From the IMG/VR virus record IMGVR_UViG_2698536657_000017, positions 1-35,026 of that record: a stretch of 35,026 bases of DNA, one strand, 5' to 3'. Positions 6,001-9,000 of this stretch are shown one piece after another. The DNA is from a virus. Lineage: Duplodnaviria; Heunggongvirae; Uroviricota; Caudoviricetes. The first letter of the stretch is position 1. Each line of letters starts with the position of its first letter. A program made the position numbers.

Positions 6001-9000
6001 AATCGAGTTCGTATTTATGAAAAGCACGGTCGATTCCGGCATTATTTATTGCACTGTATTCCGCATCACTGAAGAAAGGTGGAAATACGATGTATCCTTC
6101 CATTGTCAGCGCCAGAACGCGCGGATCGGTTTCTGTCAGCCATTCGTTTTCTGTGAATTCTTCAGAATTAATTTCAATGATTTCAGGTTCTTCTTTCATG
6201 GTTACTCCGTGTTCATCCGGTGTTAATTACTTTTATTCACTCTGAGCGCAGCCAGAAGATGTGGCTCAGCAATTCGTTTGTTGCGATATATCTGTGATAC
6301 AGCCTGGCCTTTTCAGGTCGTAAAAATCCCCGACAATAAAGCTGTAAATTAATTACTGTTCTTAAATAATGTTATTCGTTTTCAGTCCGGCACAGATGCT
6401 TTTCTGCTTTGTCTGCTGTACAGGATAATGAGCGGAAAAGACAATTCATCATGTTTAGCGCATCTGGTGAACCAATATCACCGCTGTCAATAATCACCTG
6501 TAACAAAGACAGGCTTTCTGTTATCTCGCAGTGGACATTATCGAGTACTTCAACGCAATTATTCATTTTTCATTATCTCCGTTATTCCGGGGGAGGAGCT
6601 ATGCTGTTAATGATTAACGCATCCGGTAATATGCCCCTCTTTAATGTAATCGATGCATTCATTCAAAAGTTCATCAATGATTAACTTTCCTGATTCAGTC
6701 AGATACTCACCATGTTGGTTGATACCGACAGCATCCTGGTATGCAGTGCGTATTGCTGTTTCACCATCTTTCCGCCCAAACTCACCACGGGTAACGCCTT
6801 CAAATCGTAATAGCAACTGGCTTATGAACTGTTCTGTTATTTCAATAGTTGTTAACTCTCCATCATGACGCTTTACAGTGAGGAGATTACTTCCTGTTTT
6901 TCGTTTCATCCGCCGCAGTGCTGCAACCGTTATGCGGCGACGATATGCAGAAATGTATTCATCTTTCATTTGTTATTTCCCGTATGCCTTTTTGAGAAAC
7001 AATACTGCAACTGACCAGTATCCGGCATCAGCCATTAATAAAGCGGTTTTATAGGCATGTTTGTTTTTCATGTGTCATCCCCATTTTAAAATAGTGAGAA
7101 CTCCCGACCGCAGACCGTCATGTTTTTATGTATGATTGTCTGTTTAATTTCCTTTATTCGTTCTCAGAGCATCAACATACTCGTAAGCCTTTTCACAGGT
7201 TTTATTCATGGAACGAATCAGACAAAGTAAGAAATCATCTGTCTCTCCGTTATCACCAGAGTTTTTAAATATAAACTCAAGCATTGACGTGTTTTCTTTT
7301 ATTTCTGCTGCCACTTCCTCAAGCATAATCAGGGGAGTTTTCATGTTCTTTGTTCCTTAAATGCATCGCATGCGCTTCTGGCGTATTGTTGTGCCAGTAA
7401 AAATATGTCATCCGAAAGTTCATCACATTCTTCATCACCGGAAGCCGAAATGATTAACCCCGCTTCAAGCAGTACTGCAATGTGATGAAAAGCTGTTTCC
7501 GGTTCGTTGGTGAGGCCTTTGAACATTTTCATCTTACGATTCCTTTGTCGTGTCAGAATGGAAACTTGTAAGTAACCACATCGGATCGCAGTCAAGTATA
7601 TTTGCCAGAGGAATCACCTGGCTTGCCAGAGGTTCAGCCTTGCCGTTCTCCCACTGGATGATGGTTTCTTCATCAACTCCAAGCAGCGTGGCGAGTTCAG
7701 CGGTGGATAGACCGCAGCTTTCGCGTTGGGTGCGGATGCCATCACGGCAATCTTTTTTGTTTCTCGGAGGTAACAGAATATGTTTTAGTTGTTGGATTTT
7801 TTCGATTCCAACCTCAAGGAGTACGTGACGGTTTCTTTCCGATACAGACTCCAGACTTTCATGAAGCAGCGATTCTACTTGTTCGATAAGCATCAATTGT
7901 GAAGTAGACATAAAAAAACCTCGTAACCAATATTTCGAAATCTAGGTTACGAGTGAGTAATGTAGGTGTCAAGAGCAATTAATGTTTTTTGTTGAATTAA
8001 ATTTGCATACGCATCTCAACGACAACACCAATAATTTCACAATCCCCATTGATGGGGATCAGTGGATAGCGTGGGTTTAGTGGCTTTAGGAAACATTGCC
8101 CAGCGTCTTCTATGTACTGTTTAAGGGTTGCCTCTCCGGAGTTTTTGAGCCTGGCGACGACATATTTTCCTGAAAAAACTTCTTTGTCAGGGTTAACAAG
8201 AATGTTCATGCCTTCAAAAATAGAGAACTCTCCATTCTGTGATGTCATTGAGTCCCCTTTCACTTCCAGCCAGAAGCCGTGATCGCCCGCATATATATCG
8301 CTACCAATCCATTCTTCTGGATAAGCTATGTAATCTTCGCAGTTCCAGGGGCCAGCACTCACCCATGTTAGTTTCGGATATCTATAACGGTTTGGAGAAA
8401 CTGGCTTAGGATTTCGGACGTTTTGAATGCTATCTGTAGGTGATGGGGCGCTGCCGTCAAGAAGCCATTTAGGAGAGCATTTCAATGCATCCGCGATTCT
8501 AAATAGGTTTGAAGATCTTGTGTCTTGTGAGTCTCCTAACTCTATTTTGCTGATTGTTACACGCGAGACACCAGTCAATTTTGCCAGGTCATCTTGTGAC
8601 ATTCCTAGCTGTACTCTGCGCATTAACAGTCTGCCACCAAAGCTATCGTGATCCATCTTCTCCCCCTTCTTGTCGAAATAATCGTTTCGAAACAAATATA
8701 GCAAAAAATCTTGAAATCTAGGTTTCGGAAAATTAAGATTAATCGAAACAAACGTGTCGAGGTGGATATGGATTTGTATGAAATTCTAAAAAACATGTTT
8801 GGATCGAATGTTGAAATAGGTCGTTATTTTCCCCGAAGGGGAAGGGCTAGAACCGGACAGGCTGTAGGTAAGTGGAAAACCCGAGGTGTGCCGGAAGACG
8901 TGGCGATCCTTTGTCATCTGGATCCCAAAATTCCTTATCAGCATCCGTCGCTCATGAATGCCAGTCATGAATCGTGATGTTCTGCCGGAGGCTGTATGTC

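Follow-up and report, generated by a model that had tools for sequence, protein, structure and literature searches.

Three small open reading frames (ORFs) in the early-left operon of an Escherichia coli lambdoid prophage, here called A, B and C, encode members of two protein families, each of which recurs in related phages as a domain fused to the same Xre-type helix-turn-helix (HTH) domain at the same genomic position. The prophage, integrated adjoining rcsB, is the IMG/VR record IMGVR_UViG_2698536657_000017, and the window that we analysed is the whole stretch of 35,026 nucleotides. A (6372-6566, 64 aa) and B (7144-7344, 66 aa) are anciently diverged paralogs sharing a module of PHROG 6882, termed HP after its predicted helical hairpin, of which B carries the canonical form and A a divergent copy. 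C (7341-7532, 63 aa), which a sequence-only reading of this DNA had taken for a third paralog, falls in a second small-module family, PHROG 4587, here the C module. All three are encoded on the minus strand. Because both modules recur fused to that Xre HTH domain at that position, we propose that A, B and C may act as protein-interaction modules of an early regulatory circuit and not as enzymes, a reading that we consider plausible though short of probable.

The products of A and B align by BLASTP at 38% identity across 53 residues (E 6e-9), and each matches PHROG 6882 over its full length (A, E 8.6e-31, residues 1-64; B, E 4.5e-38, residues 1-63). The window has 811 stop-to-stop ORFs, of which a hidden Markov model (HMM) of the HP family, built from 45 domain sequences, matched A (5e-23) and B (3.5e-34) alone, the next best reaching E 0.85; the similarity noticed between these two products from the sequence alone is therefore significant. 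Profile scans located no further copy of HP or C in the window, whether in the N terminus of HTH125, the HTH gene that immediately precedes C, or at any other place. Across 27 diverse members of the family, A and B included, the residues E17, L22, C41-L42-x-R44-S45 and T49 (B numbering) are invariant or nearly so. Synonymous sites between A and B are saturated (dS ~1.8), from which we infer that true paralogs separated here long ago, and since A stands about equally far from every other HP family member (27-37% identity), it would be an old or horizontally acquired copy and not a recent tandem duplicate. Among 5426 complete E. coli genomes, A is present in 14 and the C-B pair in 72. We have seen A only in the prophage lineage of the window, where it replaces the f37/f43 genes that usually occupy the slot after the neighbouring gene p120; in other phages this slot, between p120 and p186, holds unrelated small genes. 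A lack of conservation in related prophages, one way in which the prediction of a gene family might have failed, is accordingly found in part for A, confined as it is to one lineage, but not for B and C, which are conserved under purifying selection.

C belongs to neither of these lineages of HP. It matches PHROG 4587 (E 1.6e-33 over residues 1-62) and a 25-sequence HMM of the C family (E 4e-37); against A it gives no BLASTP match and against B only E 0.33, the HP HMM does not match it, and hhalign comparison of HP with C returned a probability of 0.7% with shallow profiles and 0.6% with profiles of 45 and 25 sequences. The 'SGD' core that was thought to unite the three ORFs is conserved in neither family: because the loop in which it lies varies within both (SPDSGE, SNEDHE and similar in the A/B family; SAVDDDE, SVIDIEE and similar in the C family), its presence in all three is best read as a coincidence of loop sequence. 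What had been described as a family of three proteins of 63-66 aa thus survives as a pair of paralogs, A and B, with a neighbour, C, unrelated to them in sequence. Further hhalign comparisons of all pairs among HP, C, two types of C-terminal extension and an N-terminal extension found in longer HP proteins were non-significant, and an identification of C with the extension ext1 was rejected (1-5 bits in HMMER). At some loci the C family is represented by a tandem pair, two diverged copies lying directly upstream of HP (L077, L078 (~4613-5004) and L091, 2113-2504).

The evidence that ties both families to a DNA-binding partner comes from their architectures in other phages. A word-indexed homologue search recovered only close E. 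coli relatives, and the wider HP family became visible when 1.8 billion representative proteins were searched exhaustively by profile (threshold E <=0.001), a search that returned 50 clusters; two of these (P0057 and P0059) are spurious repeat proteins, leaving ~48 genuine HP clusters. Many of the proteins are 110-150 aa long with the HP module at the N terminus; across the family, the sequence after HP is either of two unrelated extensions or one or two Xre HTH domains, and in other cases a different 64-aa segment stands before HP. Long forms with a C-terminal extension correspond to the related phrog_27579 (138 aa). Pfam HTH_3 occurs in 6 of the 27 selected aligned members (P0038, P0042, P0050, P0051, P0064 and P0065); the HTH domain of one such fusion, P0065, and that of HTH125 share 59% identity, and the HP-HTH fusions are encoded directly after an S24 repressor, the same genomic position that HTH125 occupies. 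The C-family HMM, in turn, matches the N-terminal domains of three types of HTH protein encoded by E. coli prophages (HTH170, HTH139 and HTH142; E 5e-17 to 2e-3), each of which is then followed by a free-standing C gene, and at locus L087 the first two genes from the PL promoter are HP-HTH-HTH and x-C-HTH. PHROG 6882 and PHROG 4587 are both phage protein families without recorded function, structure or Pfam/NCBIfam model, and the link between them that these Xre HTH fusions suggest is new, in that neither catalogue entry contains it. Many of the long HP genes run out of frame just past an 'APPP' proline tract, with ext1 replaced by unrelated sequence (P0034, P0041, P0047, P0049 and P0060; loci L054, L057 and L065-L067), a change that could be a recurrent homopolymer frameshift mutation, a sequencing error or programmed slippage.

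In the window, HTH125 (7534-7911, minus strand) is the first PL gene and consists of a variable N-terminal stretch of ~55 aa followed by a conserved Xre-type HTH (Pfam HTH_3, E 2e-11, residues 59-113). The same plan holds across related loci, where the first PL gene joins a conserved Xre HTH to a swappable N-terminal domain of ~60 residues, of which there are at least seven types. Across loci (including L005-L038), the N-terminal type is paired one-to-one with the type of repressor while the HTH domain is conserved, which places the mosaic joint of the immunity region within the first PL gene.

The predicted fold of B counts in favour of modules of this kind. AlphaFold2 models B as a helical hairpin (helices at residues 4-28 and 34-64) with a pLDDT of 89.9, and C as two helices at low confidence (pLDDT 68); a common fold for HP and C is possible, although hairpins of this sort are ubiquitous. 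The free-standing hairpins are plausibly early regulatory partner proteins, to judge from the company that their modules keep in the fusions. HP and C would then serve as oligomerisation or partner-binding domains, and free-standing A, B and C would have as binding partners one another, the HTH regulator or proteins that associate with it, with a candidate binding face in HP formed by the small-residue stripe C41-S45-T49 together with R44 and E17. Such binding would tune early-left expression or the commitment to lysis or lysogeny in the style of SinI acting on SinR.

In Bacillus subtilis, the SinI/SinR and SlrA/SlrR pairs each combine an Xre HTH regulator bearing a helical oligomerisation domain with a small antagonist that consists of that domain and nothing else. 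The prophage arrangement resembles them in that small proteins, here predicted to have two helices, are encoded beside an Xre HTH regulator, and in that the HP and C modules also occur as domains of such regulators in related phages. The likeness is best regarded as a mechanistic analogy and not as homology: A, B and C have no sequence relationship to SinI/SinR, showing no match to any Pfam family at E up to 1; the phage fusions have the opposite order of domains, the hairpin preceding the HTH; and the regulator of the window, HTH125, has an N-terminal domain of another type. A bolder extension of the idea, which we think unlikely, is that interchangeable hairpin cassettes of ~60 residues, namely HP, C and four or more other N-terminal types, used both as domains of Xre regulators and as free-standing proteins, make up a previously undescribed second regulatory layer linked to immunity, in which SinI-like action in trans would set lytic commitment and A-type duplicates would allow cross-talk with co-resident prophages.

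Several observations weigh against the proposal that A, B and C are interaction modules of a regulatory circuit. In the window, the HTH125 N-terminal domain gave no match to the profile of either HP or C. C is 97-100% conserved among E. coli prophages while the N-terminal domain of the HTH gene switches among at least seven types, a constancy that argues against C specifically titrating that domain. HP occurs without an adjacent HTH gene in many phages, so it must also be able to act without the HTH regulator. The helical hairpin is a generic and ubiquitous fold, searches of Pfam, PHROGs, NCBIfam and PDB sequences gave no characterised homologue for A, B or C, and the fusions speak for functional linkage and not for mechanism. 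The sequence-only reading had been unable to assign a family, and the searches bear this out as far as characterised families go: NCBIfam holds none for A, B or C, and PDB sequence searches with the family profiles produced no meaningful matches. Searches of the literature by accession, PHROG identifier and topic found no work on the three proteins.

The many phages that carry HP without an HTH gene are also what a host-directed role would lead one to expect. On this view, soon after induction the hairpins would bind and inhibit some protein of the host, such as one involved in defence, division or proteolysis, with A as a diversified copy aimed at a different target. This possibility of host takeover or anti-defence, raised from the sequence alone, competes seriously with the regulatory reading, above all where the divergent extra copy A is concerned, even if we hold it to be somewhat doubtful. 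A lies in a replaceable slot and has diverged strongly, which is how an accessory gene subject to diversifying pressure should look; the HP module bears several alternative C-terminal extensions; and A, B and C share with lambda Kil, CIII, Ral, Gam and Orf63 the character of small early-left proteins. B, however, is syntenic and core-like, under strong purifying selection (dN/dS ~0.1) and not a patchy accessory gene, and repeated fusion to a DNA-binding HTH is unexpected for an inhibitor of host proteins. Pfam, PHROGs, NCBIfam and PDB sequences yielded no family of known function for A, B or C, with no anti-defence-specific library among the collections searched.

As relatives of HP and C, we tried and rejected lambda N, Ral, Ea10, CIII, Kil and Gam, and likewise Ea8.5, Ea22, Orf61, Orf63 and Orf60a, none of which gave an HMM match. 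A parallel in general character is Orf63 (PDB 8DSB), a 63-aa dimeric protein of the early PL operon with pro-lytic effects (PMC10869804). Orf63 resembles A, B and C in size, in early-left position, in being mostly helical, in its restriction to temperate phages and in having no known biochemical activity; it differs in comprising two helices and a strand and in being encoded in the exo-xis region and not at the head of the operon, and the HP and C HMMs score at most 1.3 bits against it.

Lambda CIII, an inhibitor of FtsH, is a protein of 54 aa. Like HP, it is a small early-left protein organised around an amphipathic helix, and the two have a short SLLExI-type motif in common, the HP motif E-x-T-S-L-L-E-x-I resembling the CIII core SESLLERI. 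On these grounds the HP hairpin might block the host protease FtsH through its amphipathic helix and thereby stabilise a CII-like regulator, for which HTH125, matching phrog_4836 'CII-like regulator' at E 3e-28, would be at hand, and the size and operon position of the HP genes are similar to those of cIII. We regard this as very unlikely. The motif match amounts to 2.6 bits over 12 residues among 7 targets and is non-significant, there is no match to Pfam Lambda_CIII at E up to 1, and HP occurs without HTH125 in many phages; moreover, the C-L-x-R-S motif conserved in HP, a two-helix hairpin, is absent from CIII.

In Stx-converting and related lambdoid prophages, the immunity region and the early operons decide between silence and lytic growth, and hence toxin release. 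If the HTH regulator encoded first from PL is indeed modulated by the hairpins, the lysis-lysogeny switch would gain a further point of control, and a block of 'hypothetical' genes that recurs in hundreds of enterobacterial prophages would be accounted for; if the hairpins are host-directed effectors instead, they would be candidates for new small inhibitors. In either case, two PHROG families without an assigned function are now tied to each other and to a DNA-binding partner, although practical gains are modest.

The placement of these genes in an early-left operon beside the immunity region, proposed in the sequence-only reading, is upheld by the sites upstream of them. A CI-type repressor (7997-8656, minus strand; Pfam Peptidase_S24, E 4e-23; HTH_3, E 2e-14; 'LexA family protein' in RefSeq) is separated from HTH125 by a gap of 85 bp that contains TCGAAAnnnnnnTTTCGA-type palindromes and TTGACA. 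Within it lie a putative PL promoter and OL operators (7920-7972, minus strand), with the -35 element TTGACA at 7972-7967 followed after 17 nt by TAACCT, and with two overlapping 18-bp palindromes (7921-7938 and 7935-7952) that resemble the three OR sites. The latter, also TCGAAAnnnnnnTTTCGA-type palindromes, occupy the gap between cI and a cro-like gene (8673-8760, unstranded), at 8673-8690, 8711-8728 and 8743-8760, where there is also a promoter-like site at 8711-8739 on the plus strand. The layout corresponds to the classical OL/PL and OR/PR arrangement. Given the OL/OR-like palindromes and TTGACA between cI and HTH125, the genes HTH125, C, B, p32, p120 and A, which are tightly packed or overlapping, are predicted to be CI-repressed early-left genes expressed from the putative PL promoter; sequence prediction found no separate minus-strand promoter-like site upstream of A, B or C.

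This arrangement bears on superinfection exclusion, a further role that had been suggested for the small proteins, and on other 'moron' functions expressed in the lysogen. The region downstream of cI is where lambda has rexAB and where other phages have sieB or bstA, and a gene beside the immunity region could by its position belong to that class. The OR-like palindromes in the 85-bp gap overlap the TTGACA-type promoter, however, so that repression in the lysogen is expected, and the only recognisable upstream promoter is the one overlapped by these operators, no other being predicted on the minus strand. As genes downstream of CI operators that overlap PL, A, B and C should be off in a lysogen, and we consider a superinfection-exclusion or other moron role highly unlikely.

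That A, B and C are genes is well supported. All three are present as intact ORFs on the minus strand and conserved, and RefSeq annotates the same ORFs in a prophage of E. coli strain 04-00955 that is 99.7% identical to the window, where all genes of the region are labelled 'hypothetical'; the nearest sequenced phage, Stx2f phage phi467, is ~80% identical over part of the region. A Shine-Dalgarno-like sequence precedes each ORF (GGAG for A). The start of C follows the HTH125 stop codon at a distance of 2 nt, and C overlaps B by 4 nt (ATGA), an overlap through which C is predicted to be translationally coupled to B. The description of the three as tandem holds only loosely: it suits the overlapping C and B, but A sits 577 bp downstream of B, with p32 and p120 in between. 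Against E. coli orthologues, dN/dS is 0.08-0.15 for B and 0-0.08 for C, indicating purifying selection on both. Rfam places no RNA element in the A/B/C region.

It might still be argued that the ORFs are due to chance or are decaying, functionless pseudogenes, for they are very small and without a database family of known function, A is left unannotated in some RefSeq genomes, and an IS1 disrupts the upstream HTH gene in two genomes. We find this barely credible, since the ORFs are kept intact across dozens of diverged phages, C and B together show dN/dS of 0.0-0.15, Shine-Dalgarno sequences and translational coupling are present, and the predicted fold of B is confident. The insertions just mentioned are of IS1A and interrupt HTH125 in its 3' portion, close upstream of C (L092, NZ_CP027586; H7, NZ_CP075632); they should be polar on the downstream small genes. 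A separate feature of this stretch is that, measured against the same four loci (L010, L012, L020 and L025), the synonymous divergence of C (dS 0.14-0.17) is far below that of the adjoining B (dS 0.9-1.7), which suggests a recombination joint close to where C meets B.

Synteny was compared across 80 IMG/VR loci retrieved with the family alignment and in phages phi467, Fraca, Klebsiella ST16-OXA48phi5.3 and EKP1. In these ~80 loci and the named phages the order is always repressor, HTH gene (where present), C (optional, and sometimes in two copies), HP, p32, p120, p186/p194, ORF6N, p74, xis and int. HP-p32-p120 is nearly universal, and B, with a syntenic orthologue in all related phages, is a conserved gene at the head of the early-left operon in a large group of enterobacterial lambdoid phages. 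Of the two genes that separate B from A, p32 (6973-7071, minus strand) encodes 32 aa (MKNKHAYKTALLMADAGYWSVAVLFLKKAYGK) and is without RefSeq annotation; it lies between HP and p120 in nearly all of the ~80 loci and, with dN/dS of 0.14-0.21, is probably a real small gene. The second, p120 (6607-6969, minus strand), encodes 120 aa matching PHROG 1737 (E 7e-50), is syntenic in all loci and has a dN/dS of 0.18-0.25; searches against PDB returned only spurious matches for it. The N terminus of p120 is arginine-rich (YRRRITVAALRRMKRKTG) and reminiscent of RNA-binding arginine-rich motifs. The early-left module, elsewhere enterobacterial, is also present in locus L091 (OM284015, 'Elizabethkingia phage EKP1'), with an HP protein 54% identical to B; its recorded host belongs to the Flavobacteriia, an assignment that we regard as doubtful.

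Elsewhere in the window, a 300-aa protein (2683-3585, minus strand) has an N terminus resembling that of lambda Ea22 (BLASTP E 3e-7, 38% over 45 aa), the product of a prolysogenic gene of the exo-xis region. Rfam identifies, on the plus strand, a sok antitoxin RNA (13960-14134), whose adjoining hok is annotated as frameshifted in RefSeq, and tandem copies of the small RNA STnc100 (18465-18670 and 18732-18945). A type I restriction-modification hsdM/hsdS pair lies downstream of the Q antiterminator.

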